DNA of 64,000 nt, taken from NCBI GenBank assembly GCA_937877565.1, contig CALFJB010000056.1:11151-75150 (forward strand), in the 5' to 3' direction. The notes under the pieces were generated by a model. That model did not search any database and was not told where the DNA came from. It saw nothing but the letters and a program-made list of their open reading frames with translations. Position numbers and translations under genes: made by a program. Positions 1 through 64,000 of this stretch are shown here, piece after piece (position 1 is the first letter of the stretch; the number at the start of each line of letters is the position of its first letter). Source of the DNA: an uncultured Selenomonadales bacterium. GTDB taxonomy: Bacteria > Bacillota > Negativicutes > Selenomonadales > Selenomonadaceae.

Positions 1-308
1 GCGCGGCTTGCAGTAAACTTGCAAAGGCGAACGGTTTTTCTGTCGTTACAGATTTAGGCGGTCACGGTTGCGGCAAAGATTTTCACTTAGAGCCGTTTGT
101 AAGTCACGATTGTAAAGCCGGTACTGGTATGCTTTTAGTTCCAGGTATGTCAATCACGGTTGAGCCAATGATTAACGCCGGTGGCAAAAAAGTTACAGTC
201 GATAACAAAGATCATTGGACTGTCCGCACGAAAGACGGCAGTTTGTCCGCGCAATGGGAGAAAACTATTTTAATTACTGAAACAGGCAATGAAGTTTTAG
301 CGTCGTAA
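1..308 (+). CDS. map: methionine aminopeptidase type I, C-terminal fragment (5' end outside window)
   Basis: Frame ending at TAA 306-308 translates to ...GMSITVEPMINAGGKKVTVDNKDHWTVRTKDGSLSAQWEKTILITETGNEVLAS, a typical MetAP-I C-terminus. Confidence 0.8.
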   Translation, partial: AACSKLAKANGFSVVTDLGGHGCGKDFHLEPFVSHDCKAGTGMLLVPGMSITVEPMINAGGKKVTVDNKDHWTVRTKDGSLSAQWEKTILITETGNEVLAS

Positions 309-322
309 TTTTTTATGTTTAA

Positions 323-517
323 ATGTACTTTTCTGTCAGTCGAAACAGAAAGAGCAAATGTTCGTACTCCTCACATTTGCAACCAAAAGAATTCTTTTTC
401 GCCCGTCCGCCGCTAAGGTGTAGCACGCTCCTAGTAGGTGTGCCGCCAGAGGCGGCGCGTAGTTTACCGCACGCGCCAACTTTACTGTTATCGGCGGCAC
501 AGGACGGGCGTTTTTTT
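323..517 (+). repeat. structured intergenic repeat, copy A: stem-loop HP1 (328-352), stem-loop HP2 (354-380), Rep-X module (400-510) plus T7 run
   Basis: Rep-X aligns over ~110 nt with 63451-63571 (shared GCCGCCAGAGGCGGCGCGTAGTTT..CGCACGC.CCAACTTTA..CGGCGGCACAGGACG). Closing stem GCCCGTCC/GGACGGGC plus T-run could terminate map. ORF 323..532 is only a translation of this repeat. Confidence 0.7.
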
Positions 518-544
518 ATATTTTTTATTTAAAGGTGACATTTA

Positions 545-1699
545 ATGGCAACATTTACAGAATTAAAAGTCAGCGCAGAAGTTTGCGAAATTTTAAAACG
601 GCAAGGAATTATAACGGCAACTTCCGTACAAGAAAGAGTTATCCCGCAAGCCCGCGCGGGCAATGATTTAATCGTTCAATCTAAAACCGGCACAGGAAAA
701 ACTTTGGCGTTCCTATTGCCGACGATTGAACGGCTGAAAAAAATTCCCGCCACGCAAGAATTAATTATTGCGCCGACGCGGGAACTTGCAACCCAAATTT
801 CTAAAGTTGCAGAAAAAATCTGCGCGACGCTTGAAATTGAATCTTTGCTAATTTGTGGCGGACAAGATATTGACAGGCAAAAAGAAAAACTCAAACGAAT
901 ACCGCAATTAGTTATTGGAACGCCGGGCAGACTTTTAGACCATTTGCGGCGCGGTACTATCCAACTTAAAAATATTAATAAAATCGTAATCGACGAAGCG
1001 GACGAACTTTTAAAACTTGGCTTTATTGAAGACGTTGAAAATCTTTTGCGTGAAACTGCCAAAGACAGACAAATAATTTTATGTTCGGCAACAATGCCGC
1101 TTAGAATCAGGCAACTTGCCGCCGAATTTTTAAAAACTCCAAAAGAAATTTTAGTCGAAACTAAAACCGTAACGCTTGAAAATATTAATCAAGTTGTTGT
1201 AAAAGTTTCAGCTGAAAAAAAATTTGCGTGTCTTTGTGAAATTTTGCAAAGTGAAAATCCCTATCTTGCAATGATTTTCTGCGCTACGAAGGAAACAACT
1301 TCAAAACTTGCGTTGGAATTGGCGAAGAAAAATTTTGAAGTTGACGAATTGCACGGCGATTTAACGCAACAGCAGAGAAATTTTGTACTGAAAAAATTTC
1401 GTGAGGCGAAAATTCAAATTCTTGTTTCAACTGACATTGCGGCGCGTGGCTTGGATATTGAAGGCGTGACGCACGTTATCAGCTACGAGGTACCGCGTGA
1501 CGTTGAAACTTACATTCACAGAATCGGCAGGACAGGTCGCGCAGGCGAACACGGCACGGCAATTACTTTGGTTACTGCCGCTGAAGTTGAAAAACTGCGC
1601 CGAATTGAACGCGGTATTAAAAAACAAATTGCGGTTAAACGTCCCGCGCCTAAAACTCCACGCGCCAAACAAATTCAAAAATATAACCGTAAGCGTTGA
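545..1699 (+). CDS. DEAD-box ATP-dependent RNA helicase
   Basis: Motifs AQSKTGTGKT (Walker A), VIDEADELL (DEAD), CSATMP (SAT), HRIGRTGRAG (motif VI); basic C-terminal tail. Confidence 0.95.
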   Translation: MATFTELKVSAEVCEILKRQGIITATSVQERVIPQARAGNDLIVQSKTGTGKTLAFLLPTIERLKKIPATQELIIAPTRELATQISKVAEKICATLEIESLLICGGQDIDRQKEKLKRIPQLVIGTPGRLLDHLRRGTIQLKNINKIVIDEADELLKLGFIEDVENLLRETAKDRQIILCSATMPLRIRQLAAEFLKTPKEILVETKTVTLENINQVVVKVSAEKKFACLCEILQSENPYLAMIFCATKETTSKLALELAKKNFEVDELHGDLTQQQRNFVLKKFREAKIQILVSTDIAARGLDIEGVTHVISYEVPRDVETYIHRIGRTGRAGEHGTAITLVTAAEVEKLRRIERGIKKQIAVKRPAPKTPRAKQIQKYNRKR

Positions 1700-1766
1700 A
1701 GGAATATTTCACTGCGCGGCGAAAATTGAAGTTAGAAATTTGAAATGTATCGAAAGTTTATATGCT

Positions 1767-2498
1767 ATGAAAGTTTTAAAAATTTTTTTATTGGCGGTAA
1801 TGTGTCTAAGTTGCGCCGGTTGTTTTCAAGCCGAATCCAATTTGAAAATTACTGACGACGGCGAAGTTACTATGAAAAATAAATTTATTGGTGCGCCGCT
1901 AATCGCCGGAGTTATCGAAGAATCTAAAAACAATATGCTGAAAAATAATCCCGACGCCAAAGTTAGAAATGTCAGCGAAGGCGGCTACAACGGCTACGAA
2001 ATTGAAATTTTTTATCCTGATATGGACAAATTCGCCGCAAATAATTTTGAAATGTATCAAGCGCGTCCCGGCAAATGTACCGGCGTTCAAATTTCGCACG
2101 GCTTTTTTTATGATACTTGCAATTTCGATTTACTTTTTGAAGGACAGAAAATTGACACTTCAGATTTAAACGCGGCAATGACTCAAGCATTTTTCGCGCA
2201 GATTAAATTTGATTTTGCAGTTGAAATACCTTACGCCGCCGAAAATTCCAACGCTGATTATATGAGCAACGACGGCAAAATTTTAACGTGGAATATCGCT
2301 CCGGCTTTAATCAACGGGCAGGATAAAGCTATGCAATTTAATTTTAAAATTTATCATCCGCTTAGAATTGCGGCAACATTTTTCTTGACACTGTTGGTTA
2401 TTGCGGGCGTAATTTATAATTTAACTCAAGTAAAAAATAGGAAGCTGGAGAAAAAGGAAATTAGGGAAGAAAATGAAAATCAAAACCCTAACCCCTAA
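1767..2498 (+). CDS. putative lipoprotein with C-terminal membrane anchor
   Basis: Internal ATG at 1767 gives signal peptide MKVLKIFLLAVMCLSCAGC (lipobox). The upstream part of ORF 1497.. overlaps the helicase 3' end. There is a C-terminal TM helix, and the last codons (QNPNP stop) lie inside a heptamer array. Confidence 0.6.
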   Translation: MKVLKIFLLAVMCLSCAGCFQAESNLKITDDGEVTMKNKFIGAPLIAGVIEESKNNMLKNNPDAKVRNVSEGGYNGYEIEIFYPDMDKFAANNFEMYQARPGKCTGVQISHGFFYDTCNFDLLFEGQKIDTSDLNAAMTQAFFAQIKFDFAVEIPYAAENSNADYMSNDGKILTWNIAPALINGQDKAMQFNFKIYHPLRIAATFFLTLLVIAGVIYNLTQVKNRKLEKKEIREENENQNPNP

Positions 2499-2519
2499 TT
2501 CCTAATCCCTAGCCCCTAA
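2461..2519. repeat. heptamer array (TTAGGGA ... CCCTAAC/CCCTAAT/TCCTAAT/CCCTAGC)
   Basis: Read directly; followed by the conserved leader CGACCGAAGGGAG (2523-2535) and the pfp start codon. Confidence 0.85.
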
Positions 2520-2543
2520 AAACGACCGAAGGGAGTTTTTTTA

Positions 2544-3809
2544 ATGGTTGGAGTAAGAAATGTAGTGGCTATAGTTTGTGGCGGCGGTCCCGCGCCCGGT
2601 ATTAACGCTGTTATCAGCGCGGTTACAAATACCGCCAATCGTAACGGCTGGGACGTTTTGGGAATGTACGACGGCTTTTCACATTTGGGACGCGGCGAAA
2701 AAAATTATATTCGCCTTGATTCTGCCAACGTCAACCGTATTCATTTAACCGGCGGCTGTATCCTTCGTATGTCTCGTTTCAATCCTACAAAAAAAGAATC
2801 TGATTTACATACCGTTGTTGAAACTTTGACAGAATTGGGCGTTAATTACCTCGTAACAATCGGCGGCGACGATACTGCTTTCAGCTCTTCCGCAGTTTCA
2901 GAATACGCCCGCAAACTTGGACGCACTATTAACGTTGTCCACGTTCCAAAGACGATTGATAACGATTTACCTTTGCCTGAAGGTATTCCTACATTCGGCT
3001 TTGAAACTGCCCGCGCGTTCGGTACTACCGAAATTCAAAATTTAATGGAAGATGCCCGCACTTCAAATAATCGTTGGTACTTTACAATCGCAATGGGACG
3101 CACTGCCGGACATTTGGCGTTGGGTATGGGACGCAGTGCAGGCGCGGCTGTTACGATTATTCCTGAAGAATTTCCGCAACCTAAAATTCGTCTTCAACAG
3201 ATTGTTGATATTATTGTTGGCTCAATCGTCAAACGTTATGTAATTGGTAAAAATTACGGCGTTGCAGTTATCGCTGAAGGCGTCATTGAAAAAATCGCTG
3301 AAGAAGACTTCGCCGAACTCGGCAACGTTGTACTTGATGAACACGGTCATATTCGTTACGCTGAATTGGACTTTGGCGAAATTCTCAAGCAAAAAGTTTT
3401 GGGCGAATTGAAACGCCTCAATATTAAAATGTCAATCGTCGATAAAGAAATTGGCTATGAATTCCGTTGCGCGGCTCCTATTGCTTACGATATTGACTAC
3501 GCACGCAATTTGGGCTATGAGGCTATGCAATTCTTGATGAGAGGCGACAGCGGCGCACTTATCACTATTCAAGACAATGAAGCCGTTCCAATGCGCTTTG
3601 AAAATATTCGTGATCCTGAAACAGGCAAAACATTTGTACGCCGCGTTAATGTAAATTCTGTACATTACAAAATTGCGCGTGGCTTTATGACTCGTTTGGA
3701 AAAAGGCGACCTCGAAGATCGCGGTTTGGCTAACGCTTTCAAAATGGAGCCGGAAGAATTTAAAAACCGCTATCAATATCTCTTTGATAATGAACCTTCA
3801 CTTGACTAA
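2544..3809 (+). CDS. pfp: 6-phosphofructokinase, pyrophosphate-dependent type
   Basis: PFK-family motifs CGGGPAPGINAVI, TIGGDDT, PKTIDNDL, MGRTAGH; the 421-aa length is typical of PPi-PFK. Confidence 0.85.
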   Translation: MVGVRNVVAIVCGGGPAPGINAVISAVTNTANRNGWDVLGMYDGFSHLGRGEKNYIRLDSANVNRIHLTGGCILRMSRFNPTKKESDLHTVVETLTELGVNYLVTIGGDDTAFSSSAVSEYARKLGRTINVVHVPKTIDNDLPLPEGIPTFGFETARAFGTTEIQNLMEDARTSNNRWYFTIAMGRTAGHLALGMGRSAGAAVTIIPEEFPQPKIRLQQIVDIIVGSIVKRYVIGKNYGVAVIAEGVIEKIAEEDFAELGNVVLDEHGHIRYAELDFGEILKQKVLGELKRLNIKMSIVDKEIGYEFRCAAPIAYDIDYARNLGYEAMQFLMRGDSGALITIQDNEAVPMRFENIRDPETGKTFVRRVNVNSVHYKIARGFMTRLEKGDLEDRGLANAFKMEPEEFKNRYQYLFDNEPSLD

Positions 3810-3835
3810 TTAATTTTTCACAATAAAAAAAAATT

Positions 3836-3865
3836 AAGCCGTTCAGAAATGAGCGGCTTTTTAGT
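3836..3865. terminator. bidirectional intrinsic terminator between pfp and the MATE gene
   Basis: Hairpin AAGCCG..CGGCTT flanked by an A-run and a T-run, between convergent genes. Confidence 0.6.
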
Positions 3866-5210
3866 TTTTAATTTCTTTTAAATTTTTAGTGTAAAATCTG
3901 TAGGCAATTATCAAAAATACCATTGTAAAGAACCAACTGACGCCGTAAACTGCCATTAACGCCGCGTAAGTTGGAATTTTTGCAAAGACTGTGAAAACCC
4001 AAGTAATTCTGATACCGCACACGAAAACCAAAGTAATTATCGCAGGAGCTAAAGAAATACCGTAGCCGCGCAATGAACCCGAAACTATTTCCATTACAAC
4101 CGAAATTATTTCCGGCGCAATGATATACCACAATCTTATAACGCCCAATCTTATAACTTCGGAGTCATCGTTGAAAAATCTTACAAGCGGCTCGGCAAAA
4201 TATAAAATTGCCGCAGATAAAATCAACATCAGCACGATATTTATTTGCAGCGAAACTTTTGTAACGTCCTTGCAACGTGGCAAATTTCCCGCGCCGTAAT
4301 TTTGACTTACAAAAGTTGTTGCCGCCTGTCCAAAGCCGTTTGTTAAGCAGAAAACATTTATTTCAATCGTAAAAGCCGCCGCACTTGCCGCCATTGCGTC
4401 CGCGCCCAGTGCGTTTATCGCAGATTGTATCAGCAAATTTGACAGCGAAAATACCATTCCTTGAATACCGGCGGGCAGTCCGATTCTAACCGTTTCTTTC
4501 AAGCAGGATTTATCAATTTTCAATTCTGAAATTTCAAGGTGAATGACACCTTCAGCTTTTCGCAAGCCGTGAAAAAGCATAACCGCGCTAACTGCATTTG
4601 CAATTACCGTAGCCCACGCCACGCCTTCAACGCCCATATCAAATTGCAGGACAAAAATCAAATTCAGTGCAATATTTAAAAAGCTTGCAACCGTCAGGGC
4701 AATTAACGGCGTTTGAGTATCGCCGCGACTTCTGAAAATTGCCGCCTCAAAATTGTAAATTCCCATTACGGGAAGTCCAACGGCGTAAATTCTCAAATAA
4801 GTTTCAGCCATTGGTGCAACTGCCGCCGGTACTTGCAACCATTCAAAAACGGGATTAACTAAAATTTCTGCAATTCCCCAAAGTGCCACGCCGACAATTA
4901 TTGCCAATAAAAAAGCCGTATTAACTGCATTATGCACACGGTCAAATTTTTCTGCGCCGATATTTTGAGCAATTACGACGTTTGCGCCCAAACTCAAGCC
5001 CATAAATAAATTTACAAGCAAGCCGATTAAAGCGGTGTTGTTTCCAACTGCCGCCATTGCGTTTTTGCCGACGTATTGCCCCAAAACTGCCACGTCAGCC
5101 GCGTTTAAAAGTTGTTGCATTACGCCGGTTAAAGCTAACGGCAGAGCGAACAAAATTATTTTGTCCCACAACGTGCCGTGCAACATATCAATATCACGAG
5201 TTTTTAACAT
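3861..5210 (-). CDS. MATE family multidrug efflux transporter
   Basis: 449 aa, about 12 hydrophobic helices, N-terminal LWDKIILFALPLALTGVMQQLLNAADVAVLGQ typical of MATE/NorM proteins. Confidence 0.85.
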   Translation of the reverse strand: MLKTRDIDMLHGTLWDKIILFALPLALTGVMQQLLNAADVAVLGQYVGKNAMAAVGNNTALIGLLVNLFMGLSLGANVVIAQNIGAEKFDRVHNAVNTAFLLAIIVGVALWGIAEILVNPVFEWLQVPAAVAPMAETYLRIYAVGLPVMGIYNFEAAIFRSRGDTQTPLIALTVASFLNIALNLIFVLQFDMGVEGVAWATVIANAVSAVMLFHGLRKAEGVIHLEISELKIDKSCLKETVRIGLPAGIQGMVFSLSNLLIQSAINALGADAMAASAAAFTIEINVFCLTNGFGQAATTFVSQNYGAGNLPRCKDVTKVSLQINIVLMLILSAAILYFAEPLVRFFNDDSEVIRLGVIRLWYIIAPEIISVVMEIVSGSLRGYGISLAPAIITLVFVCGIRITWVFTVFAKIPTYAALMAVYGVSWFFTMVFLIIAYRFYTKNLKEIKN

Positions 5211-5254
5211 TATTTTTCCAAATTTGAAAATTTTTAAATTGATTAAATTTCAAA

Positions 5255-5290
5255 TCCCTAATCCTTAGTCCCTATTTCCTAGCCCCTAAC
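5255..5290. repeat. heptamer array (TCCCTAA TCCTTAG TCCCTAT TTCCTAG CCCCTAA)
   Basis: Read directly; lies between the comM stop and the MATE gene start. Confidence 0.8.
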
Positions 5291-6825
5291 TACTGAACGT
5301 CCATATCTAAATCGTTGCGAAGTTTGACGGCTTCGGCAATATGTTTGGCGGAAATTTCAGCCGCGCCGCCGTCCAAATCTGCGATTGTGCGCCCAACTTT
5401 TATAATTCGGTCGTAGGAACGCGCAGAAAGTTTTTTCGTTTCAAAAACATCCTTCAAAAGTTTTTCGGCGTCTTCAGTCAATTTGCAAAATTCCTGCAAC
5501 ATTGCATGATTCATTTGTGCGTTGCAGAAAAGATTATATTTTTGAAGGCGTTGCAGTTGAATTTCACGTGCGGCGGAAACTCTTTCACGGACTGCGGCGG
5601 AAGTTTCAGCCTTTCTTTTTGAAGTTAAATCCTCGTACTTTACGCGCGGTACTCTAATATGAATGTCAATCCTATCTAAAAGCGGTCCGGAAAGTTTGCG
5701 CGTATAACGTTTAATTTCAAGCGGCGAACAGTTGCAGGTATGATCTTTATCGCCGTACCAACCGCACGGGCAGGGATTCATCGCACAAATTAAAATCATA
5801 CTGGAAGGAAAAGTTAAAGTGCCGTTGACGCGGCTAACTGTAATTTGTCTTTCTTCCAACGGCTCGCGCAGGGATTCAAGCACATTTTTTTTAAATTCAG
5901 GCAATTCGTCCAAAAATAAAACGCCGTGATGTGCAAGCGTAACTTGTCCGGGTTTTGGAATAATTCCGCCGCCAATAATCGCTGCAGTTGAGGCGTCGTG
6001 ATTCGGATTCTGAAACGGGCGTTTAGTAATTAAGCCGCCGTTACGTTTCAATTTTCCTGCCACGCTGTAAATTTTTGTAACTTCAAGAGCCTCTTCGTGC
6101 GTCAATTCCGGCAAAATTGAACTTACGCGCTTTGCAAGCATAGTTTTACCACTGCCGGGAACGCCTACCATTAAAACGTTATGCCCGCCCGCCGCCGCAA
6201 TTTCCAGCGCACGTTTCGCCATAAATTGCCCTTGCACGTCTGAAAAATCGTCAACCAATTCTATAAAGCCGTCAACTTCTTCGACAGGTTGAGGCGTTGC
6301 AGGTTTAATTTCAAATTCGCCTTGAAAAAATTCTACCAATTCAATTAAAGTTTGAGGCGCGTAAACTTCGACGCCTTCAACAAGTAAAGCCTCGTTAATG
6401 TTGTCCTGCGCGACGACAATTTTTTTAAAACCTGCGTCACGGGCTGTAACAGTCATTGGCAAAATTCCATCAACGGCGCGGAGTTTACCTTCAAGCGACA
6501 ATTCAGAAATTAATACAAACTCGTTTAAAATTTCGGTAGGAAATTTACCTTGAGCCGCCAAAAGTCCAACGGCTATTGGCAAATCTAAGCCGGAACTTTC
6601 TTTGCGAACGTCAGCAGGGGCAAGATTGACGGTAACTTTTTCTTGACGAAGACGCAAGCCGGAATTTTTTATGGCGGTGCGGACGCGCTCCTTTGCCTCA
6701 CGAACGGCAGCATTTGCAAGTCCAACAACGTCAAATGACGGCATACCGTTCGCACTGTCAACTTCAACTGAAATTATTAAGCCGTCAACCCCTTGTGTCG
6801 TTGCTCCAAAAGTTCTGGCGTACAA
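5290..6825 (-). CDS. comM: YifB/ComM family Mg-chelatase-like AAA+ ATPase
   Basis: Walker A GVPGSGKTMLAKR, Walker B GVLFLDELPEF, Cys cluster CPCGWYGDKDHTCNC, 511 aa. Confidence 0.9.
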   Translation of the reverse strand: MYARTFGATTQGVDGLIISVEVDSANGMPSFDVVGLANAAVREAKERVRTAIKNSGLRLRQEKVTVNLAPADVRKESSGLDLPIAVGLLAAQGKFPTEILNEFVLISELSLEGKLRAVDGILPMTVTARDAGFKKIVVAQDNINEALLVEGVEVYAPQTLIELVEFFQGEFEIKPATPQPVEEVDGFIELVDDFSDVQGQFMAKRALEIAAAGGHNVLMVGVPGSGKTMLAKRVSSILPELTHEEALEVTKIYSVAGKLKRNGGLITKRPFQNPNHDASTAAIIGGGIIPKPGQVTLAHHGVLFLDELPEFKKNVLESLREPLEERQITVSRVNGTLTFPSSMILICAMNPCPCGWYGDKDHTCNCSPLEIKRYTRKLSGPLLDRIDIHIRVPRVKYEDLTSKRKAETSAAVRERVSAAREIQLQRLQKYNLFCNAQMNHAMLQEFCKLTEDAEKLLKDVFETKKLSARSYDRIIKVGRTIADLDGGAAEISAKHIAEAVKLRNDLDMDVQ

Positions 6826-6850
6826 TGTTTTAACCTCCAGTCATTAAAAT

Positions 6851-7141
6851 TCAAGCGTCTATGTCGATTGTTGAAGAAAATCTTGTGTGTTGCCGCCTGT
6901 AAGTGTCATTATCTTTTTGTCGAAGTTCTTCTTCAATCTGCGCGAGTTGCCGCTCAAATTCGGCGCGTTTTGCAGGATTATTTTGAATTTGCTGTGATAA
7001 TTTTTTCTGATGATTTTTCAAATTTTCAATTTTAGAATCAACTTCATCTGTTGAGGCGGTTGTAATTTCTTCAGGTTGACGCGCTTTTTTTGGCACTTCA
7101 ATCGGCTGATAATTGTTTGAATTTACGCCGCTAATATTCAT
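6851..7141 (-). CDS. hypothetical coiled-coil protein
   Basis: 96-aa ORF in the operon gap, Gln/Glu-rich predicted helix; no family recognised. Confidence 0.4.
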   Translation of the reverse strand: MNISGVNSNNYQPIEVPKKARQPEEITTASTDEVDSKIENLKNHQKKLSQQIQNNPAKRAEFERQLAQIEEELRQKDNDTYRRQHTRFSSTIDIDA

Positions 7142-7183
7142 TTTAAAATCTCCTTCAATCGATTTTAATCAGAAATAATTTCG

Positions 7184-7903
7184 TCAATTTTTGCCCTGTT
7201 CAACGCTTTTAATTTCGTCTTTTGAGGCACCTTTCAGCGCGTAAGTATCAAAGGCGGGGCTGTCAGGTATTCGTATTTCTAAACTTGTAATTCGGCAAAA
7301 AGCCGCCTTGCCTTGATTAATGCTCACGTCAAATACATGCCCGCCGTGCTTTTTATCTTCAGAAATGAAATGCAAATGCCAACCGGCGGCGTTAATTCCG
7401 TCCATATAATCTGGGTAATATACGCAAACTAACGAGCCTTTTAAATTTTCAAAAATAAATGCTTTTTGAGTAACGCTCAAAGCATCTTTCAGCGTCAAAT
7501 GATGCGCCACTGTACCTGATTCAGATCGGGCGTCTACCTTTGAAAAATCGCCGTCAATTCTAACCGCGTACATTGAATTGAGTCCAAAATCTTCCTCAAT
7601 GCAAACTGTCAACCATTCTTTGAGATTTTCGATTGTGTCAATTTTTCCAAATTCTTCGATTCTGTTGGATTGAAAATTGCAGACAGCGGCAAACGGTACG
7701 CCGCGTTTATCTTCAGCCATAACTATATCGCCGTTATTTTTAGCGCGGTAACATTTCCCGTCCAAAACAATCATTTCGCCGTCAACATCTTCAAAAGTTC
7801 CAAGTCCCGTATCGCCATTTTTGAGCAATTCTTCAACTGTTATAACAGACTTTGAAAATCCCAATGCCAACGCCTGCAGCGTGGATACTTGATAAAATTT
7901 CAT
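7184..7903 (-). CDS. alsD: alpha-acetolactate decarboxylase
   Basis: MKFYQVSTLQALALG..GLGTFEDVDGEMIVLDGKCY..GWHLHFISEDKKHGGHV match the family. The start was moved to ATG 7903, preceded by GGGAGGAA. Confidence 0.85.
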   Translation of the reverse strand: MKFYQVSTLQALALGFSKSVITVEELLKNGDTGLGTFEDVDGEMIVLDGKCYRAKNNGDIVMAEDKRGVPFAAVCNFQSNRIEEFGKIDTIENLKEWLTVCIEEDFGLNSMYAVRIDGDFSKVDARSESGTVAHHLTLKDALSVTQKAFIFENLKGSLVCVYYPDYMDGINAAGWHLHFISEDKKHGGHVFDVSINQGKAAFCRITSLEIRIPDSPAFDTYALKGASKDEIKSVEQGKN

Positions 7904-7919
7904 TAAATTTCCTCCCGTT

Positions 7920-8294
7920 TTACATTTCGGAAATAACTTCAAAGGCGTTTTCAATGTGGTTAATTTTAAAATCCTTGCCCGCCGAAATAATTTCTATCAC
8001 GTCGAAACGACAAGCGCAGTTGCAATATTTTTCATCTTGCAAAAAAACGCTTGCCGCCTCGATAATTTTTTTCTGTTTGCGAATATTCACAGCCTCCGCC
8101 GGTAAACCGTGCCGAATATTGGAGCGCGTCTTCACTTCAACAAAAACTACGACGCCGCCGATTTCTGCGATTATGTCAATTTCTGCCGTGCGGATTCGAT
8201 AATTTCTCTCTAAAATTTTGTAGCCGTGATTTTCTAAAAATTTTGCCGCTAAATTTTCGCCGGTATTGCCCAACTTTTTTGTAGCGTCTGACAT
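7920..8294 (-). CDS. yraN: YraN family (UPF0102) endonuclease-like protein
   Basis: GENLAAKFLENHGYKILERNYR..EIDIIA..VVFVEVKTR signature, 124 aa. Confidence 0.8.
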   Translation of the reverse strand: MSDATKKLGNTGENLAAKFLENHGYKILERNYRIRTAEIDIIAEIGGVVVFVEVKTRSNIRHGLPAEAVNIRKQKKIIEAASVFLQDEKYCNCACRFDVIEIISAGKDFKINHIENAFEVISEM

Positions 8295-8807: not shown

Positions 8808-8886
8808 TAAAATTACCTCCAAAAATTTTTTGTAAAATATTTTTCAACGTGCAAATATTTTTTTCCTGCAAAGAATACGATATTTT

Positions 8887-10407: not shown

Positions 10408-10425
10408 TAAAATTTTTCCCTCGTT

Positions 10426-52786: not shown

Positions 52787-52798
52787 TTCTTTCTCTCC

Positions 52799-53578: not shown

Positions 53579-53679
53579 TCCCTACACCTCTATTCCTTTT
53601 TCAATGATCCGTTTTTAAGTTGCCTTTTTTCGCCCCTTAGGTGTATAATACAGTATCTTTTTTACGAAAGGGGCTTTTT

Positions 53680-56836: not shown

Positions 56837-56854
56837 AGGAAAGGAGCACTCACT

Positions 56855-57178
56855 ATGACAATTACAAAGACCCTTGACGGCGAAAAATTGACTGTCGCAC
56901 TTGTCGGCAGACTTGATGCCGTTACCGCTATTCAGTTTGACAAAGACATTTCAAAATCTTTGGACGGCGTCAACAATTTAATTATCGACTTGGCGAATTT
57001 GGAATATATCGCCTCCGCCGGTTTACGTATCCTCTTAAAACTTCAAAAAAATTTTATGGGCGATATGAAAATTAAAAATGTTCGCTCCGAAGTCCGCGAT
57101 GTTCTGGATATGACCGGCTTTTCTCGCCTTTTGACTATCGAAGACGCCGCGTCTAAAAAACTTTCTTTCAATTTTTGA
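56855..57178 (+). CDS. STAS-domain anti-sigma-factor antagonist-like protein
   Basis: SpoIIAA-like pattern ..LTVALVGRLDA......F......L......LIIDLANLEYIASAGLRILL. Confidence 0.75.
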   Translation: MTITKTLDGEKLTVALVGRLDAVTAIQFDKDISKSLDGVNNLIIDLANLEYIASAGLRILLKLQKNFMGDMKIKNVRSEVRDVLDMTGFSRLLTIEDAASKKLSFNF

Positions 57179-57187
57179 GGTGGTACT

Positions 57188-57535
57188 ATGATTAAATCTT
57201 TAGACTTTGAAAATTTGTATTTCCGCGCCAAAGTTCCTATTCCATTTGTTGAAGACAATTTCTACCTTCCTGCCAAAGTTTTCATTGAAGGTTATTTCCC
57301 CGTCGGTACTGTTTTCAAATTTCAAGAAGCCATTTGCAGTAAAAAAATTGACGTTTACAACGACCAAGTTAATGACTACTGCCACGCCGTTTCACTTTTG
57401 TACAGCAACAAGTTTAAAGGCAATGAAGTTCCGGACGAAGATGAAGAATATAAAGTTATCTTTCACGTTGACTTGAGTGCATTATTTTTACTTGTTGAGC
57501 CAATAGATGAAAAAGGCGTTCAAATTGAACTTTAA
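57188..57535 (+). CDS. hypothetical protein (115 aa)
   Basis: ORF with GAGGTGG upstream; no family recognised. Confidence 0.5.
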   Translation: MIKSLDFENLYFRAKVPIPFVEDNFYLPAKVFIEGYFPVGTVFKFQEAICSKKIDVYNDQVNDYCHAVSLLYSNKFKGNEVPDEDEEYKVIFHVDLSALFLLVEPIDEKGVQIEL

Positions 57536-57565
57536 ATTTTTTGCAATAAAAAACCCCCTTCAAAG

Positions 57566-57594
57566 TTGACAGTCAACTTTATACGGAGTATAAT
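57566..57594 (+). promoter_or_regulatory. consensus sigma-70 promoter with no downstream ORF
   Basis: TTGACA (57566-71), exactly 17 nt, TATAAT (57589-94). Confidence 0.75.
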
Positions 57595-57600
57595 ACAATC

Positions 57601-57813
57601 ATTAAAACGAATTATACTCTATATGAAATTTATGTTTAGAATTTAGTTTAGTTAAGTTTCATTCGGTGATAGGGCATAACCTCTTGAAACTTAATCTTAA
57701 GATTTTTGTAAAACATTCAGGTTTTATAAAAACGTTAAACGTTTTACAGTGACAATCATACTTTTAGAAATAAGTTTTGTCAATAAAAAAATCGCCGGTG
57801 TGGCGGTTTTTTT
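57601..57813 (+). ncRNA. candidate ~210-nt small RNA of unknown class
   Basis: Bounded by the consensus promoter and a terminator-like hairpin with T-run (57785-57813). The only ORF is a 7-codon one. Internal 9-bp stem TTAAGTTTC/GAAACTTAA, and the ends can pair. Confidence 0.5.
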
Positions 57814-57821
57814 ATTTTATA

Positions 57822-57873
57822 AATAACGACGTGAACACTCGCGACTTTAGTCGTGAGATGAAACGTCGTTATT
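57822..57873 (+). repeat. twin-hairpin element, copy 1
   Basis: 11-bp stem AATAACGACGT/ACGTCGTTATT encloses the 16-nt hairpin CGCGACTTTAGTCGTG (57840-57855). Confidence 0.7.
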
Positions 57874-58023
57874 GACTGTATTTTAAAAATAGACTAAAAT
57901 ATTTTTAGCGGTTAGACTTCCGCTTTAACAAAAATGTTTTAAGTAAGCTGAAGCCTTCGGGCGACAGTGTAGAGGCGACGTGGACACGCCTGTAAGAATA
58001 AGGGCTTTGCCAAACTTCTTAAC

Positions 58024-58053
58024 GAAGCCCGCGACTTTAGTCGTGGGTGGTTC
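58024..58053 (+). repeat. twin-hairpin element, copy 2
   Basis: The same 16-nt hairpin CGCGACTTTAGTCGTG at 58030-58045, in direct orientation 190 nt from copy 1, in a different outer stem (GAAGCCC../..GGGTGGTTC). Confidence 0.7.
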
Positions 58054-58086
58054 ACAATATAAGTCCGCCGTTCATAAGTGTGCAAC

Positions 58087-58124
58087 AAAAAAGCCCGCCG
58101 ATTTTTCCGACGGGCTTAAATTTT
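58087..58124. terminator. bidirectional intrinsic terminator (ends the atp operon on the minus strand)
   Basis: Hairpin AAGCCCGCCGA / TCCGACGGGCTT flanked by an A-run and a T-run. Confidence 0.75.
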
Positions 58125-58550
58125 TTAATTGAAAGGTACGTTTTTAACAAGAAGTCTAGCCTTAGCGCGGGCAAGTGCCTTATTTGCGCGGGCAATATCA
58201 ATCAATGAATCTTTGGTTGCGCGTTTGTATTCTGCAATTCTTTCTTCGGCGCGTTGCATTGCTCTTTTAGCTCTGTCAACGTCGATATTTTCGGGAAGTT
58301 CAGCAGAATCTGCCAAAATTGTAATTTGCTCCGGCGTAACTTCCATAAAGCCGCCGCCTATCGCTACCAAAGTTTCGCCGCCGTCCATTTTAACTTTCAT
58401 TGCGTGCGGTAAAAGTTCAGTTAATAAATTGGCGTGGCGCGGCAAAATTCCCAATTCACCGGCAGTTGAACGTACAATCAGCATATTTATATCTTTTGAT
58501 AAAACGTCGCCTTTGTCAGGTGTAACCAACTCAAGTCGAATAGTCGCCAT
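58125..58550 (-). CDS. atpC: F1 ATP synthase epsilon subunit
   Basis: 141 aa, LELVTPDK..ML.V.STAGELGILP.H..L pattern, directly downstream of atpD. Confidence 0.9.
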   Translation of the reverse strand: MATIRLELVTPDKGDVLSKDINMLIVRSTAGELGILPRHANLLTELLPHAMKVKMDGGETLVAIGGGFMEVTPEQITILADSAELPENIDVDRAKRAMQRAEERIAEYKRATKDSLIDIARANKALARAKARLLVKNVPFN

Positions 58551-58553
58551 TGC

Positions 58554-59963
<1,410 letters not shown>

Positions 59964-59996
59964 TTAAATTCCTCCTTATTAGGAATTTTAGGGATA

Positions 59997-60434
59997 TTAG
60001 ATACTGTTTTCAATTTTCTCAACGATTAAATTTTGTAACCACTTTGGCGGCTTTGTTTTGCCTTTATCATAATTTTTTATTGTACGATAAGGCGCACGCA
60101 TTAACCTTGCCAGTCGATTTACAGGTATTCCGGCATTTTGACGCGCATGACGAATTGGATTGTCCAGCGAACTTTTCCACTCATCAAAATCAAATTCAAT
60201 AACATTAACTATAGGATTTGGATATTCTGAAGTGTCAATATCTTCAATTTTTGAAGGCGGCGGAAAATCTTTTTTGTCAACATCAAATAAATACGTTCCC
60301 ATAGCGTCTTTAATCCAGTACATTGCCGCCGTTAAATCGTCGCCTTGAGTAAGACAGCCTTGCAAATCAGGTACTATACCAATAAATTTGCCGCTTTCTC
60401 CCTGAAAAAAAATTACCGGATAATAAATTTTCAT
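59997..60434 (-). CDS. hicB: HicB family antitoxin with C-terminal HTH
   Basis: N-terminus MKIYYPVIFFQGESGKFIGIVPDLQGCLTQGDDL.AAM is typical of HicB; it lies downstream of hicA. Confidence 0.8.
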   Translation of the reverse strand: MKIYYPVIFFQGESGKFIGIVPDLQGCLTQGDDLTAAMYWIKDAMGTYLFDVDKKDFPPPSKIEDIDTSEYPNPIVNVIEFDFDEWKSSLDNPIRHARQNAGIPVNRLARLMRAPYRTIKNYDKGKTKPPKWLQNLIVEKIENSI

Positions 60435-60439
60435 AGCGT

Positions 60440-60637
60440 TTACCTTCTTTTTAATCCTGCCTGTTTAAGTATTGTTTGCTCCGTGCCTTTATCAAGATCG
60501 CCGTTGTGCATTGGCACTGTTGTTTTACGATTCGTTATCGGATTATAAAAATGTTGGTGTGAGCCGTCAGGACTTTTGACTTTGATAAAGCCGTTTTTTT
60601 CCAATAGTCGTACCATTTGTTTTGCAGTTAATGGCAT
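60440..60637 (-). CDS. hicA: HicA family mRNA interferase toxin
   Basis: 65 aa; AKQMVRLLEKNGF..V...GSH..F...........VP.H.GDL..GT...ILKQAGL. Confidence 0.8.
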   Translation of the reverse strand: MPLTAKQMVRLLEKNGFIKVKSPDGSHQHFYNPITNRKTTVPMHNGDLDKGTEQTILKQAGLKRR

Positions 60638-60647
60638 TTAAATCTCA

Positions 60648-61733
60648 TCACTCCAAAGCATTAGCACCGCCAACAATTTCGTTAATTTCGTTAGTGATAC
60701 CGGCTTGACGTACTTTGTTATAGTACAGATTGAGTTTGCCAACTAATTCTTGAGCGTTATCAGTTGCGTTACTCATTGCGTTCATACGTGAAGAAAGTTC
60801 AGACGCCGCACTGTGCAACATTGCGCCATAAATTCTTGTAGCAATTCGGCGCGGCAGAAAATCATTTAAAACCGTCACAACGTCCGGCTCGTAAATGTAT
60901 TCTTCCTTTGAATTGGTAGTGCGCTTGTAGTCATCAGTTACCAACGGCAAAAGTGTAACATCTTCCGGCGTACAACTAATCGCAGAATTAAAACGCGTGT
61001 AAACCATTGTAACGTCAATAATTTCGCCGCTCAAAAATCTTTCCATAATTAAATCAGCAATTTCTTTGGCGTGATGATAACTTGGGCGTTCGCTGATACC
61101 GTGATAACTTTTAATAATTTTGTAGCCGCGTTGTTTGAAATGTGAAGTTGCCTTGCGTCCAACCGTTATAATTTCAATGTCATCAACATAATCTGCGTCG
61201 TGAGTGTCCTGCGCGACACTGATATTTTGAGTATTGTTTGCGTGACGATGTGCGCCCGCTCTAGTCAAACTTTTTTGCGCTTTAAGTTGATCGCCGTCAA
61301 TACCTTTTGCCATTTTTACCGCGTCAAAATTTTTTTTATGGAAACTTTCTTCTTTGTCTGCATCAGATTCTTCAGGGGACGTGCCGTCATATTCGATTGT
61401 TGCATGAGCCTCTTTGAAAATATTGCTGGAATACGCGCCCGCCAATCCTTTATCTGCCGCAATTACCAAAAATAAAAATTTGCCGTCAGTTCTAGTTTGC
61501 GCGTCAATCAGTGCTTGCCGTGACATTACAAAAGGACTTTCTTCATCAGTTGACATTTGCGACATAATTCTTTTGATAATATCACGAGTTTTTTCAACGT
61601 ACGGAATATTTGAAAGTAACGTATCTTTAGCGGCGTTGAAACGTGAACGCGCTATCATATCCATTGCGTTGGTAATTTTTTGGATACTTTTAACCGAGCG
61701 AATACGGCGGCGAATATTTTGTAAATTTGCCAA
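60648..61733 (-). CDS. atpG: F1 ATP synthase gamma subunit with an internal ~65-aa insertion
   Basis: (M)ANLQNIRRRIRSVKSIQKITNAMDMIA N-terminus and QAGITNEINEIVGGA C-terminus. Start set to TTG 61733, 9 nt after GGAGG. Confidence 0.9.
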   Translation of the reverse strand: MANLQNIRRRIRSVKSIQKITNAMDMIARSRFNAAKDTLLSNIPYVEKTRDIIKRIMSQMSTDEESPFVMSRQALIDAQTRTDGKFLFLVIAADKGLAGAYSSNIFKEAHATIEYDGTSPEESDADKEESFHKKNFDAVKMAKGIDGDQLKAQKSLTRAGAHRHANNTQNISVAQDTHDADYVDDIEIITVGRKATSHFKQRGYKIIKSYHGISERPSYHHAKEIADLIMERFLSGEIIDVTMVYTRFNSAISCTPEDVTLLPLVTDDYKRTTNSKEEYIYEPDVVTVLNDFLPRRIATRIYGAMLHSAASELSSRMNAMSNATDNAQELVGKLNLYYNKVRQAGITNEINEIVGGANALE

Positions 61734-61757: not shown

Positions 61758-61823
61758 AGGGATTAGGTGTTAGGTGTTAGGTTTTACACTTTCCTAATAC
61801 CTAACCGCTAAAACCTAAAACCT
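61758..61823. repeat. heptamer hairpin array between atpA and atpG
   Basis: AGGGATTAGGTGTTAGGTGTTAGGTTTT arm, loop, then CTAATACCTAACCGCTAAAACCTAAAACCT arm. Confidence 0.9.
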
Positions 61824-63345
61824 ATTCAGCAGTTTTGTAGTTGATAGTTTCTTTAAATTCTTTAATCGCCGCGCTAATTTCCGCCTCAAGTGCATCATCA
61901 AGTTTCTTTTTCTCAACAATTTTCTTGCCAATTTCGGCGTGGCGGCTGTGCATAAATTTCAAAAAATCTGCGTGGAATTGAACAACTTTATCAACGGGAA
62001 TATCAGTTAAAAATCCTCTAACTGCAGTAAAAATCGTTAAAATCTGATCTTCAACCTGCAACGGCGAATATTGCGCCTGTTTCAAAGTTTCAACCATACG
62101 TGCGCCTCTGTCAAGTTGCGCCTTTGTAGCTTTATCCAAGTCAGAGCCGAATTGTGCGAACGCCGCCAACTCACGGTACTGCGCCAAATCCAAACGCATT
62201 GTACCGGCAACTTGTTTCATAGCTTTAATTTGCGCCGAGCCGCCAACACGTGAAACTGATAAACCGACTGAAATTGCGGGGCGAATACCTGAATAGAATG
62301 AATCTGTTTCAAGCATAATTTGTCCGTCTGTGATTGAAATAACGTTTGTAGGAATGTAAGCTGAAACGTCGCCCGCTTGAGTTTCGATAATTGGCAGGGC
62401 AGTAATTGAACCTGCGCCGAGTCTGTCAGAAAGTTTGGCGGCGCGTTCCAAAAGTCTTGAATGTAAATAGAAAACGTCGCCGGGATATGCTTCACGTCCG
62501 GGCGGGCGTCTCAAAAGTAATGACATTGCACGATAAGCCGCCGCGTGTTTCGTTAAATCGTCGTAAACGCAAAGGCAATGTCCGTGTTTTTCGTACATAA
62601 AATATTCAGCCATTGCAACGCCCGCGTAAGGTGCAAGATACTGCAAAGGCGCAGAATCCGCCGCAGTTGCCGCAACAACTATTGAATATTCCATTGCGCC
62701 ATGATCTTCCAAAGTTTTAACGACACGTGCAACAGTCGAGGCTTTTTGTCCAATAGCCACGTAAACGCAAATACAATTTTGCCCCTTTTGGTTAATAATC
62801 GTGTCAATCGCAATAGCTGATTTACCAATACCTCTATCGCCGATAATCAATTCACGTTGTCCGCGTCCAATAGGTACAAGCGCGTCAATCGCTTTTAAAC
62901 CTGTCTGCAACGGCTCATGAACTGATTTTCTGTCAGCAATACCGGGAGCTTTAAATTCGACAGGGCGGCTTTGAGTTGTTTCAATAGGTCCTTTGCCGTC
63001 GATAGGGCGTCCGAGTGCATCAACTACGCGCCCAATCATATTATCGCCAACCGGAACCTGCATAATTCGCGCAGTGCGTTTTACCGTTGCGCCTTCTTTA
63101 ATTTCGTTGTCGCGTCCGAGTATAACCGCACCAACGTTATCCTGCTCAAGGTTAAGAACCAGCCCAAAAATATCATTGCCGAAATCTAACAATTCGCCGG
63201 ACATTGCTTTATCTAAGCCGTGAATGTGTGCAATACCATCGCCGACCTCTATAACCGTGCCGACTTCATCAACATTTAAATCGACGTTGTAATTTTTTAT
63301 CTGATCCTTAATTATAGCAGTAATTTCATCTGGATTTATTTTCAT
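61822..63345 (-). CDS. atpA: F1 ATP synthase alpha subunit
   Basis: Walker [16 protein letters not shown], 507 aa, conserved throughout. Confidence 0.98.
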
Positions 63346-63394
63346 ATTTTTTGAGTCACCTTCTTTTGGGATTAAGGCTAATTTTTTTTATTTT

Positions 63395-63571
63395 TTGTAT
63401 GTACTTTCTTTGTGTGCGTCAAAGAAAGTACCAAAGAAAGACGCTTTATCGCGCGTCCGCCGCTTGGGTTTACGCACGCTCCAACCGTGTGAGCCGCCAG
63501 AGGCGGCGCGTAGTTTTTCGCACGCTCCAACTTTAACTTTTTACGGCGGCACAGGACGCGCTTTTTTTTTC
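63395..63571 (+). repeat. structured intergenic repeat, copy B: HP1 (63401-63432) and Rep-X (63451-63562) plus T9
   Basis: Same orientation as copy A but antisense to the atp operon. Closing stem GCGCGTCC/GGACGCGC carries a compensatory change relative to copy A. ORF 63395..63757 is an artefact of this repeat. Confidence 0.75.
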
Positions 63572-63581
63572 CATTATTTAA

Positions 63582-64000
63582 CTAGCCTCTATTCGCCGAA
63601 TTTACCGCAAGCGTACCTTTCAAACTGCGTAAACGTCCTGCCGCACTGCCGTCAATTCGTTTATCGCCTATCGTTACAATCAGTCCGCCTAAAATTGATT
63701 TATCTTCGTGTTTACGAATTTGAATTTTTTTGCCGGTTACTGCCGCAAGTTTTTTAGTAAGCTGATTTTCCTGCGTCTTTGTAAGCGGAAACGCCATTAC
63801 TACATCTGCTACCAAAATTCCCTGCTCCTGATTTTTTAAGCCCGTGAAAATTTCGTAAATCTCGTTGAAAATTCCAATTCGATTTTTATCAACCAGCAAC
63901 AGTAAAAAATTCATTACTTCGGCTGAAATTTCATCTTTGAAAGCCTTTGCAAGTAAATCTTTTTTCGCTTGATGCGGGATTAACGGATTCTGAAAAAATT
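63582..64000 (-). CDS. atpH: F1 ATP synthase delta subunit (5' end outside window)
   Basis: The frame stays open upstream of the tracked Met to the window edge (FFQNPLIPHQAKKDLLAKAFKDEISAEVMNFLLLLVDKNR...), typical of delta/OSCP. Confidence 0.85.
   Translation of the reverse strand, partial: FFQNPLIPHQAKKDLLAKAFKDEISAEVMNFLLLLVDKNRIGIFNEIYEIFTGLKNQEQGILVADVVMAFPLTKTQENQLTKKLAAVTGKKIQIRKHEDKSILGGLIVTIGDKRIDGSAAGRLRSLKGTLAVNSANRG

Follow-up and report, generated by a model that had tools for sequence, protein, structure and literature searches.

A strongly over-represented, strand-neutral 8-mer with lineage-specific dialects in Quinella-like rumen Selenomonadaceae and their phages

The 8-nucleotide word CTGCGCGA is present as 39 exact copies, 20 on the plus strand and 19 on the minus strand, in a 64-kb stretch (hereafter the window) of a metagenome contig from an uncultured, Quinella-like rumen Selenomonadaceae. 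This represents a 15- to 17-fold excess over dinucleotide, Markov, and synonymous-codon expectations. The word is sharply bounded, is neutral with regard to strand and reading frame, is conserved at orthologous sites, and is exchanged for other dialects in related lineages, with phages co-varying accordingly. We found no prior description of it in the literature searched, and such a pattern is otherwise known mainly from two settings, the tags for DNA uptake in Neisseria and Haemophilus and the HIP1 word of cyanobacteria. The explanation that we favor, with confidence somewhat short of even, is that CTGCGCGA is a tag of same-species DNA that acts in natural transformation. For this reading we infer a reader protein, a link to transformation, and a drive that maintains the word.

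Abundance and placement of the word

An earlier note on this DNA had listed 34 sites for the word. All are exact matches to CTGCGCGA or to its reverse complement TCGCGCAG, a difference that makes the word non-palindromic, and there are five further copies (6938+, 31918+, 14187−, 26480−, and 51699−). The over-representation is therefore real and stronger than originally claimed. Only 2.52 ± 1.76 copies (maximum 7) are expected from 100 dinucleotide-preserving shuffles of the window, and 0.9–3.0 from Markov models of orders 0–4. Within genes, 34 copies are observed versus 2.08 ± 1.43 when synonymous codons are shuffled and every protein is kept. Likewise, the word occupies 34 of the 94 positions at which the encoded proteins synonymously permit it, whereas the figure for neighbor words is 0–7%. 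Its one-mismatch neighbors each occur 0–7 times in the window, which is the background level. One-mismatch variants are not enriched, and transition neighbors are not specifically depleted. Codon, dipeptide, and dinucleotide usage thus fail to account for the excess, which belongs to the word at the DNA level, as the note had proposed in preference to selection on a peptide.

The extended consensus suggested previously, TCCTGCGCGA(C/G/A), holds only in part. Position −1 is C at 25 of the 39 sites and a pyrimidine in pooled data, positions −2 and −3 are weakly A/T-rich, and position +1 is rarely T. Beyond −3 to +1, the flanks of 167 and 269 pooled sites are random, with no further conserved sequence or structure. 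Spacing in the window is Poisson-like (variance/mean 0.98), and one 9.5-kb stretch (51.7–61.2 kb) has no copy (P about 0.003). The HIP1 octamer, GCGATCGC, has no copies in the window.

On the basis of ENA gene calls and our own ORF set, 17 copies lie in the sense orientation and 20 in the antisense orientation, and 2 fall between genes. All six frames are used, which bears out the view that the word spans several frames and non-coding DNA, and the most frequent frames are Leu-Arg-Glu/Asp and x-Ala-Gln. A DEAD-box helicase gene (545–1699, +) carries a sense copy (820–827, +) and an antisense copy (1537–1544, −), and an ENA-called gene for 243 amino acids (about 1767–2498, +) has an antisense copy (2194–2201, −). 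The YifB/ComM-family gene (5290–6825, −) includes a sense copy read as Leu-Arg-Glu (5864–5871, −) and an antisense copy (6406–6413, +). Antisense copies are also present in a 96-aa ORF (6938–6945, +) and a nitroreductase-like gene (8313–8320, +), and a glutamine amidotransferase/PRTase gene has a sense copy read as Leu-Arg-Asp (11753–11760, −). The mnmG gene carries an antisense copy (13502–13509, +) and a sense copy read within Pro-Ala-Arg-Val (14187–14194, −). A Ser/Thr kinase gene has a sense copy (16111–16118, +), and an intergenic copy lies directly downstream of its stop codon (16804–16811, −). Sense (18365–18372, −) and antisense (18574–18581, +) copies are located in mnmE. Genes for a PTS IIB protein (21663–21670, −), a glycosyltransferase (24006–24013, −), an AMP-binding enzyme (26138–26145, +), and ATP synthase gamma (61209–61216, +) each carry an antisense copy, and the ATP synthase alpha gene a sense copy (63067–63074, −).

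A prophage spans approximately 26300–54300 on the minus strand and encodes a sheath, head protease, capsid E, lambda-type portal, gpA terminase, HNH protein, and DnaC-like loader. Small ORFs at its edge hold two sense copies (26480–26487, −; 26789–26796, −). The gene for a 1602-aa phage protein carries two antisense copies (29923–29930, +; 31918–31925, +) and one sense copy (32957–32964, −), and the tail sheath gene carries two antisense copies (37233–37240, +; 37821–37828, +). ORF 38130–38564 has a sense copy (38518–38525, −), and antisense copies are found in the head maturation protease gene (41938–41945, +), the portal gene (43710–43717, +), and an ENA-called 69-aa DUF6148 ORF (44213–44220, +). 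The terminase large subunit gene has a sense copy (45087–45094, −), and the 196-aa ORF upstream of it (46803–47393, −) has an antisense copy (46980–46987, +) and a sense copy (47227–47234, −). An intergenic copy lies between divergent phage genes (47561–47568, +), followed by sense copies in ORFs 47657–48643 (48452–48459, +) and 48640–49110 (48741–48748, −). Finally, the DnaC-like helicase loader gene carries one antisense copy (51376–51383, +) and two sense copies (51675–51682, −; 51699–51706, −). Depending on the boundary, 18–20 of the 39 copies lie in the prophage, in agreement with the earlier estimate of about half. The prophage carries the word at about 0.7/kb, no less densely than host DNA, and is compositionally distinct from its host (GC3 0.458 versus 0.387).

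Dialects in relatives and phages

The enrichment extends outside the window. The contig carries another 10 copies in 18.8 kb beyond it, and the word is enriched in at least 8 close relatives (0.7–1.05/kb) and reaches 0.73/kb in non-homologous segments. The overall density is 0.6–1.05/kb, with genome-wide abundance judged from contigs and loci rather than from complete genomes. Enrichment does not depend on GC content, which ranges from 37% to 56%.

A large sister clade (clade B) carries CTGCGCGG in place of the CTGCGCGA of the window's own clade (clade A). This dialect change is an A to G at position 8, and we refer to the A and G dialects. The word CTGCGCGG is also enriched at unlinked comEA loci and on two contigs of one MAG. 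At orthologous mnmG codons, the switch occurs via synonymous changes: the site at 14187–14194 corresponds to CTGCGCGG in clade B (Arg CGA/CGG), as does the site at 13502–13509 in some clade-B genomes (Ser TCT/TCC). Conservation at orthologous sites is 38 of 66, whereas in these alignments 8-mers as a whole reach about 26%. Lineage L048 alone carries a palindromic form, CTGCGCAG, with 6 sites per 19.9 kb. Genomes with the A and G dialects share one sequencing run, ERR1278105. The clades avoid different CG-rich palindromes, and therefore their restriction-modification repertoires differ.

An unrelated second word, TACCGGCG, is also enriched in the window (16 copies versus 1.8 expected; 14 versus 2.1 by codon shuffle) and climbs to 0.7–0.8/kb in one subclade. 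Two coexisting words would be unusual for an uptake system with one receptor. The second word includes RCCGGY, which belongs to a class of methyltransferase target tied to 'exceptional HIPs' (PMC4390886).

Phages that are related to the prophage, though distinct from it, have the same dialect as the host. The A dialect is present at 0.66–1.1/kb in three distinct phages, whose terminases are 61–64% identical to each other's relatives. A related phage contig carries a third form, CAGCGCGT, and none of the words was found in the related Selenomonadaceae phage L355/L356. All word-bearing phages look temperate or lie in host-type contigs. The discussion section of one study reports that prophages of Pasteurellaceae gather uptake sequences while co-evolving with their hosts (PMC7371117).

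Candidate functions of the word

If the word is a tag of same-species DNA, CTGCGCGA would be a lineage-specific 'self' word kept up by DNA-level drive or selection and read on duplex DNA, in either orientation, by a protein. A receptor of the type IV pilus/ComEA route might prefer word-bearing fragments, or this preference might be exerted at a post-uptake recognition step of the kind recently suggested for HIP1. The preferred fragments would recombine into the chromosome, and molecular drive could turn word-tolerant codon contexts into copies until there is about 1 per 1–1.6 kb. Prophages that are resident and common to the population would likewise be converted. A change in reader specificity would cause sites to be retuned, with G replacing A at position 8 and with CAGCGCGT arising in a third lineage, and the resulting dialects would restrict exchange among co-resident rumen species.

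The clade holds parts of a DNA-uptake and transformation toolkit: a YifB/ComM-family protein is encoded in the window, and ComEA adjoins a GspE/PilB/ComGA-family ATPase in G-dialect genomes. ComEA is also annotated in a published Quinella MAG. We count these genes in favor of a tag, but ComEA, ComM, and pilus ATPases are also widespread in non-competent bacteria. Type IV pilus-dependent natural competence is established in the same class for Veillonella parvula (PMC5397411), and a preprint describes improved transformation with HIP1 (bioRxiv 2024.09.10.611283).

The DUS of Neisseriaceae (10–12 nt, ComP-dependent) and the USS of Pasteurellaceae resemble CTGCGCGA in many respects. Each is a short non-palindromic word that occurs about once per kb and equally on both strands, lies inside genes in several frames with preferences among them, and is kept at orthologous sites. 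Related lineages have dialects set apart by one or two bases while the core stays the same, and the density of DUS, at one site per 400–1100 bp (PMC7371117), is similar to that observed here. Terminators harbor about half of known DUS/USS, which there often form inverted pairs (bioRxiv 2025.10.24.684340). In contrast, no close inverted pair capable of forming a hairpin and no terminator association was found among 167 + 269 = 436 pooled sites, and with only 2 of 39 window sites intergenic there is no enrichment in intergenic DNA. Other differences from DUS/USS are that the host of CTGCGCGA belongs to the diderm Firmicutes (Negativicutes) rather than to the Proteobacteria, that the 8-mer is exact and its flanks carry hardly any signal, that prophages carry it at full density, and that an unrelated second word coexists. 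Moreover, where uptake signals are graded, one-mismatch variants are usually somewhat over-represented, which is not the case for CTGCGCGA. Thus, the likeness to uptake sequences proposed earlier is strengthened by the dialects, but the few intergenic sites, the missing hairpin pairs and variants, the prophage, and the second word count against a tag. ComP is the receptor in Neisseria; here, only ComEA, PilB/ComGA-family ATPase, and ComM-family genes are seen, and a role in uptake is proposed by analogy.

A serious rival, although we consider it unlikely, is that the word is the target, perhaps extended, of a lineage-specific DNA methyltransferase. As proposed for HIP1, the word could arise from methylation-coupled biased mismatch repair or be selected as a repair or strand mark. 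All DNA replicating in the host, including prophages, would then drift to the word, and dialects would reflect changes in methyltransferase specificity. The full density in prophages of differing GC3 fits this proposal, as do the palindromic CTGCGCAG of lineage L048, the RCCGGY within TACCGGCG, and the differing restriction-modification repertoires. Indeed, the distribution is nearer that of HIP1 and the 'exceptional HIPs' of cyanobacteria than that of DUS. Like these octamers, CTGCGCGA is tens-fold over-represented at about 1/kb, lies mainly in coding DNA and in every frame, and has lineage-specific replacement words, and it shows no association with terminators. Elhai's model predicts a site roughly every 1000 nt as well as such replacement words (PMC4390886). 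However, HIPs embed known methyltransferase sites and are palindromes, as is the end state of the model (PMC4390886), whereas CTGCGCGA and CTGCGCGG are non-palindromic. Transition neighbors are not specifically depleted, no methyltransferase is tied to the word, and we found no listing of it as a methylation motif in the literature searched. We know of no demonstrated repair bias that yields a 15- to 20-fold excess; the effect of VSP repair in E. coli is far smaller. The function of HIP1 is itself still debated between methylation-linked repair and a role in transformation.

It is improbable that the word is a protective self-tag, by which a host nuclease or defense system spares word-bearing DNA in a Chi-like manner but in either orientation, with phages selected to mimic the host word. 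The three phages with the A dialect, another with its own word, and a prophage that is saturated with the word without being compositionally ameliorated are all in keeping with such protection. However, phage L355/L356 lacks the words, the word-bearing phages appear to be temperate or lie in host-type contigs, so the other models account for these data through co-evolution. To our knowledge, no orientation-independent Chi-like system exists.

Slightly more doubtful still is a binding site for a nucleoid-associated or chromosome-organizing protein that takes no part in DNA exchange. A sharp, orientation-neutral word with Poisson-like spacing could serve this purpose, but it is hard to see why a prophage would need such sites or why they would be retuned one by one between dialects. 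Known organizing sites such as parS, matS, and those of Noc/SlmA number tens per genome rather than about 1/kb.

The earlier note had left a Chi site (RecBCD/AddAB) open, and words that orient FtsK/SpoIIIE (KOPS/SRS) are comparable in that all are over-represented, GC-rich 5–8-mers, in those cases read by a DNA-processing machine. These words are strongly co-oriented with replication, whereas CTGCGCGA has no polarity at any locus, as the note had observed for the window: pooled counts are 93:74 in clade A and 129:140 in clade B, and those at unlinked loci are 11:9, 9:9, and 7:7. A skew of at least 70% is excluded (P = 6.5e-5 for clade A and P = 4.9e-10 for clade B), and TGATGCGG in related phages illustrates a true skew (80:13). 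We therefore reject a function of this type as very improbable. Least credible of all is an origin in the usage of codons, dipeptides, or dinucleotides, for which the preferred frames might speak but which is refuted by the codon shuffle, the use of all six frames and intergenic DNA, and the indifference to GC content, or a remnant of mobile REP/MITE repeats, which is refuted by the random flanks.

Implications for rumen Selenomonadaceae

Returning to the tag of same-species DNA, it is possible, though we hold this broader proposal more tentatively than the tag itself, that Quinella-like rumen Selenomonadaceae own the first sequence-specific, uptake-signal-like system for recognizing DNA of the same species outside Proteobacteria. 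At least three dialects (CTGCGCGA, CTGCGCGG, and CAGCGCGT) would partition co-resident species and be copied by temperate phages. If this is true, then the word would also be a barcode with which rumen phages and contigs may be assigned to their hosts.

Abundance and boundaries of the word

An exact search of the window found 39 copies of the 8-base word CTGCGCGA, with 20 on the plus strand and 19 on the minus strand. All 34 sites listed in an earlier note are correct, and its list lacked five others (6938+, 31918+, 14187-, 26480-, 51699-). Dinucleotide-preserving shuffles of the window, whose GC content is 41%, yield 2.52 +/- 1.76 copies (largest value 7), and Markov models of orders 0-4 predict 0.9-3.0, which upholds the excess claimed in that note. 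The HIP1 word, a palindromic octamer of cyanobacteria, has no copy in the window.

CTGCGCGA is sharply bounded. Its 24 one-mismatch neighbors occur 0-7 times each in the window, and they do not exceed expectation in 206 kb from the window's clade (clade A) or in 316 kb from a large sister clade (clade B), with the caveat that the expectations for neighbor words are inflated by the motif itself. Transition neighbors show no specific depletion in the same two sets, so a VSP-like signature is not seen. The base at position -1 is C at 25 of the 39 sites and a pyrimidine in the pooled data; beyond this, the flanks show only that A or T is weakly favored at -2/-3 and that T is avoided at +1. Because signal outside the 8 bases is limited to positions -3 to +1, the copies are not pieces of a longer repeat, and the flank logos rule out an origin from mobile repeats.

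Sites are spaced in a Poisson-like manner along the window (variance/mean 0.98), save for one empty stretch of 9.5 kb at 51707-61208 (P about 0.003 at the window rate). This gap contains small regulatory ORFs of a prophage, a gene for a PASTA-domain penicillin-binding protein, STAS genes, and the genes for the epsilon and beta subunits of ATP synthase. Its GC skew is the most negative in the window.

According to our own ORF set, corrected by ENA gene calls, the word is read in the sense direction at 17 sites and antisense at 20, and the other 2 (16804, 47561) are intergenic. The word occupies all six frames, with Leu-Arg-Glu/Asp (9) and x-Ala-Gln (11) as the favored readings. Synonymous-codon shuffles, which preserve every protein and the codon usage, leave 2.08 +/- 1.43 copies in genes versus 34 observed, and thereby rule out a codon or dipeptide origin. 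This result and the use of all six frames agree with the earlier proposal that selection acts on the word itself rather than on a peptide. Moreover, 34 of the 94 positions at which the proteins permit CTGCGCGA are filled, versus 0-7% for neighbor words.

Pooled strand counts are 93:74 for the A dialect, as we call the use of CTGCGCGA, and 129:140 for the G dialect, in which the last base of the word changes from A to G (CTGCGCGG). A Chi-like skew of at least 70% is rejected for both (P = 6.5e-5 and P = 4.9e-10, respectively). The earlier note had left a Chi-like role open, and these counts rule out both Chi and KOPS, which are polar words. Close pairs of sites are rare, and none is a hairpin or terminator.

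Dialects among relatives and phages

The contig that holds the window (96.4 kb; run ERR1278105, ENA ERZ922531) was placed through its MnmG protein, whose relatives derive from rumen Selenomonadaceae MAGs, several of them labelled Quinella. Enrichment of CTGCGCGA is not confined to the window, as 10 more copies are present in 18.8 kb of the same contig outside it. In eight relatives, whose MnmG proteins are at least 89% identical and whose GC content spans 40% to 53%, the word has a density of 0.7-1.05 per kb. Segments of the relatives' loci without homology to the window's contig still carry 0.73 copies per kb. Outgroup loci (Fusobacterium, Oscillospiraceae, and others) have none.

An unbiased 8-mer screen, conducted locus by locus, revealed that CTGCGCGG is the top 8-mer of the next clade (MnmG 82-87% identical), reaching 26 copies per 21.8 kb. 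A neighbor-joining tree of MnmG groups the A-dialect genomes in one clade, with the G-dialect genomes as its large sister clade; A enrichment is weak or absent in deeper branches. Lineages L017, L029, L052, and L054 are word-free. G-dialect genomes retain an excess of the A form (47 versus 20), which suggests that the A dialect is ancestral. In the mnmG alignment, clade B has the G form at both window sites, and synonymous changes account for the switch (Arg CGA/CGG; Ser TCT/TCC); the remaining sites are gains or losses specific to a clade. Window sites are kept in relatives in 38 of 66 cases, and the corresponding rate for all 8-mers of these alignments is about 26%. Run ERR1278105 yielded both A- and G-dialect genomes.

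We also sought an unlinked host locus of an A-dialect genome via ComEA homologs, and every locus fetched was of the G dialect. These unlinked comEA loci carry 10-20 copies per 14-20 kb, with the two strands in balance, and one belongs to the MAG from which locus L021 was taken but is on a second contig. For the A dialect, unlinked evidence thus comes from the flanks on the window's contig, segments of relatives that lack homology to it, and three phage contigs.

Two observations concern other words of these lineages. In locus L048 (MAG RUI390), which lacks the A and G forms, a palindromic variant, CTGCGCAG, is dispersed over 266-17998 (6 sites per 19.9 kb versus about 0.35 expected); AACCGGTT was rejected as a dispersed word there because it is a 39-base tandem array. 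In pooled loci, clade B avoids GGCGCC (3 versus 121), CGCGCG (44 versus 482), GCGCGC (76 versus 405), and CCGCGG (18 versus 144), and clade A avoids TCGCGA (36 versus 122) and TGCGCA (38 versus 121). Because different palindromes are avoided, these sequence counts suggest that the two clades may differ in their restriction-modification repertoires.

A prophage occupies about 26.3-54.3 kb of the window and encodes sheath, head protease, capsid E, lambda-type portal, gpA terminase, HNH, and DnaC-like loader proteins. Its genes hold 17 copies of CTGCGCGA versus 1.05 expected, and host genes hold 17 versus 1.27. Despite this equal load, GC3 is 0.458 in the prophage and 0.387 in the host. An exact look-up of the capsid protein matched only the source contig. 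A single-protein terminase scan of IMG/VR returned only the same phage (L081, with 6 copies in 8.2 kb) and, apart from it, distant relatives that lack the word; a profile scan yielded more. Two different phages, L357 and L359, with terminases 61-63% identical to that of the window, use the A dialect without skew (12 copies per 18.3 kb, 6:6, and 12 per 10.9 kb, 5:7, respectively). Another contig, L358 (terminase 59% identical; ENA ERZ12302819 NODE_867, 1-13552), has its own sharp word, CAGCGCGT, with 10 copies per 13.5 kb (5:5) and neighbors at 0-4. It appears to be a third dialect, with the form C-W-GCGCG-N. None of the words occurs in L355/L356, from a related Selenomonadaceae phage. Scans of viral collections for two copies within 31 nt gave, among the matches listed, only high-GC chance matches and tandem-repeat arrays.

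By contrast, a strongly polar word, TGATGCGG (80:13 pooled), is carried by more remote members of this terminase family. Its carriers in IMG/VR (L405, L406, L409, L412, L424-L426, L431, L432, and L435; terminases 51-54% identical) have up to 14 copies versus 0.8 per 21.8 kb, co-oriented with the terminase strand, and some sites are orthologous from contig to contig. TGATGCGG is a candidate Chi-like or gene-oriented word of another host group.

A second word and other repeats

A second, unrelated, non-palindromic word, TACCGGCG, is present 16 times in the window (2078, 4466, 4824, 8097, 8258, 25043, 26376, 27621, 27837, 27975, 31812, 33361, 34997, 39391, 48898, and 50716) versus 1.84 expected from shuffles, or 14 versus 2.1 by codon shuffle. 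Host and prophage DNA both contain it, in four frames and in either orientation, and it climbs to 0.7-0.8 per kb in the subclade of loci L008 and L055. It is less sharp than CTGCGCGA and has an RCCGGY core. The 49 window sites of AAAATTTT, mainly at 8-24 kb, reflect a broad enrichment of A(n)T(n) tracts in which neighbors share, and a sharp word is ruled out. AAAATTTT is abundant in most Quinella-clade loci, reaches 70 sites per 21.8 kb in a relative with 51% GC, and is relatively commoner in intergenic DNA.

Short heptamer arrays in tandem (units such as TTAGGGG/TTAGGTG/CCTAACA/TTAGCTG), which resemble the STRR heptamer repeats of filamentous cyanobacteria, lie in intergenic spacers of host and prophage (12847-12884, 28462-28590, 33495-33543, 36255-36288, 37969-38139, 39098-39152, and 50949-50997). 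They recur in many Quinella-clade loci and are absent from outgroup loci. One unrelated outgroup locus, L073 (Fusobacteriaceae MAG Go_Inlet_bin_30; 26% GC), has a HIP-like word of its own, the palindrome ATGTACAT, dispersed 16 times over 12.5 kb (32 counts versus 2.5 expected). Toxin-antitoxin modules (MNT/HepT, YoeB, HicA/HicB; 10426-11462, 17123-17392, and 59997-60634) break conserved operons of the window, with HicA/HicB inside the atp operon, and a HelD-type RNA polymerase recycling helicase is encoded at 19140-21260.

Possible origins and meaning

The behavior of CTGCGCGA requires a process that acts on a DNA word on either strand and in any resident DNA, and that has changed its specificity from one lineage to another. 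The sole demonstrated mechanism known to us for such a picture is uptake bias in natural transformation, as with the DUS and USS words of Neisseriaceae and Pasteurellaceae. CTGCGCGA is like these words in density, strand symmetry, frame behavior, and dialects. A DNA-uptake and transformation toolkit is present in part, as the window carries a YifB/ComM-family gene and ComEA adjoins a GspE/PilB/ComGA-family ATPase in G-dialect genomes. Veillonella parvula, of the same class, is naturally competent by means of type IV pili (PMC5397411).

However, CTGCGCGA has no association with terminators or inverted pairs, it saturates the prophage, its boundaries are very sharp, and a second unrelated word is enriched beside it. 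These features fit DUS/USS less well and instead resemble HIP1 and the 'exceptional HIPs', which have been proposed to arise by methylation-dependent repair (PMC4390886). A preprint reports that HIP1 confers a benefit in transformation, one that depends on methylation and homology (bioRxiv 2024.09.10.611283). Weighing the DUS/USS likenesses against the HIP1-like features, we rank first the possibility that CTGCGCGA tags same-species DNA in transformation, a reading that we favor tentatively and at somewhat less than even odds. A word coupled to methylation-dependent repair ranks second and is distinctly less probable. A protective tag seems improbable, and a site for a nucleoid protein is more doubtful still. 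Chi/KOPS activity, codon bias, and mobile repeats are rejected.

In the collection of papers searched, queries for these words, alone or as methylation motifs, returned primer sequences only, and the Quinella genome paper makes no mention in its main text of competence, repeats, or motifs. A 2025 survey treats uptake-enhancing sequences in two families only, Neisseriaceae and Pasteurellaceae (bioRxiv 2025.10.24.684340). Given these searches and the scope of that survey, we appear to have a genomic feature of a known type, now in a new phylum and with a putative function. We know of unskewed, hyper-abundant short words in only three bacterial groups: Neisseriaceae, Pasteurellaceae, and cyanobacteria. 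The uncultured diderm Firmicutes described here are a fourth case, with clean dialects, retuning of orthologous sites, and co-variation of phages. In practice, the dialect could serve as a simple barcode by which a contig from a metagenome, a prophage, or a viral contig is assigned to a Quinella-clade host; by this rule, L357 and L359 would belong to the A dialect. The clade also provides an independent setting in which to study the origin of such words, by uptake drive or by methylation-linked repair, and their possible role as barriers to gene flow within dense communities like that of the rumen.
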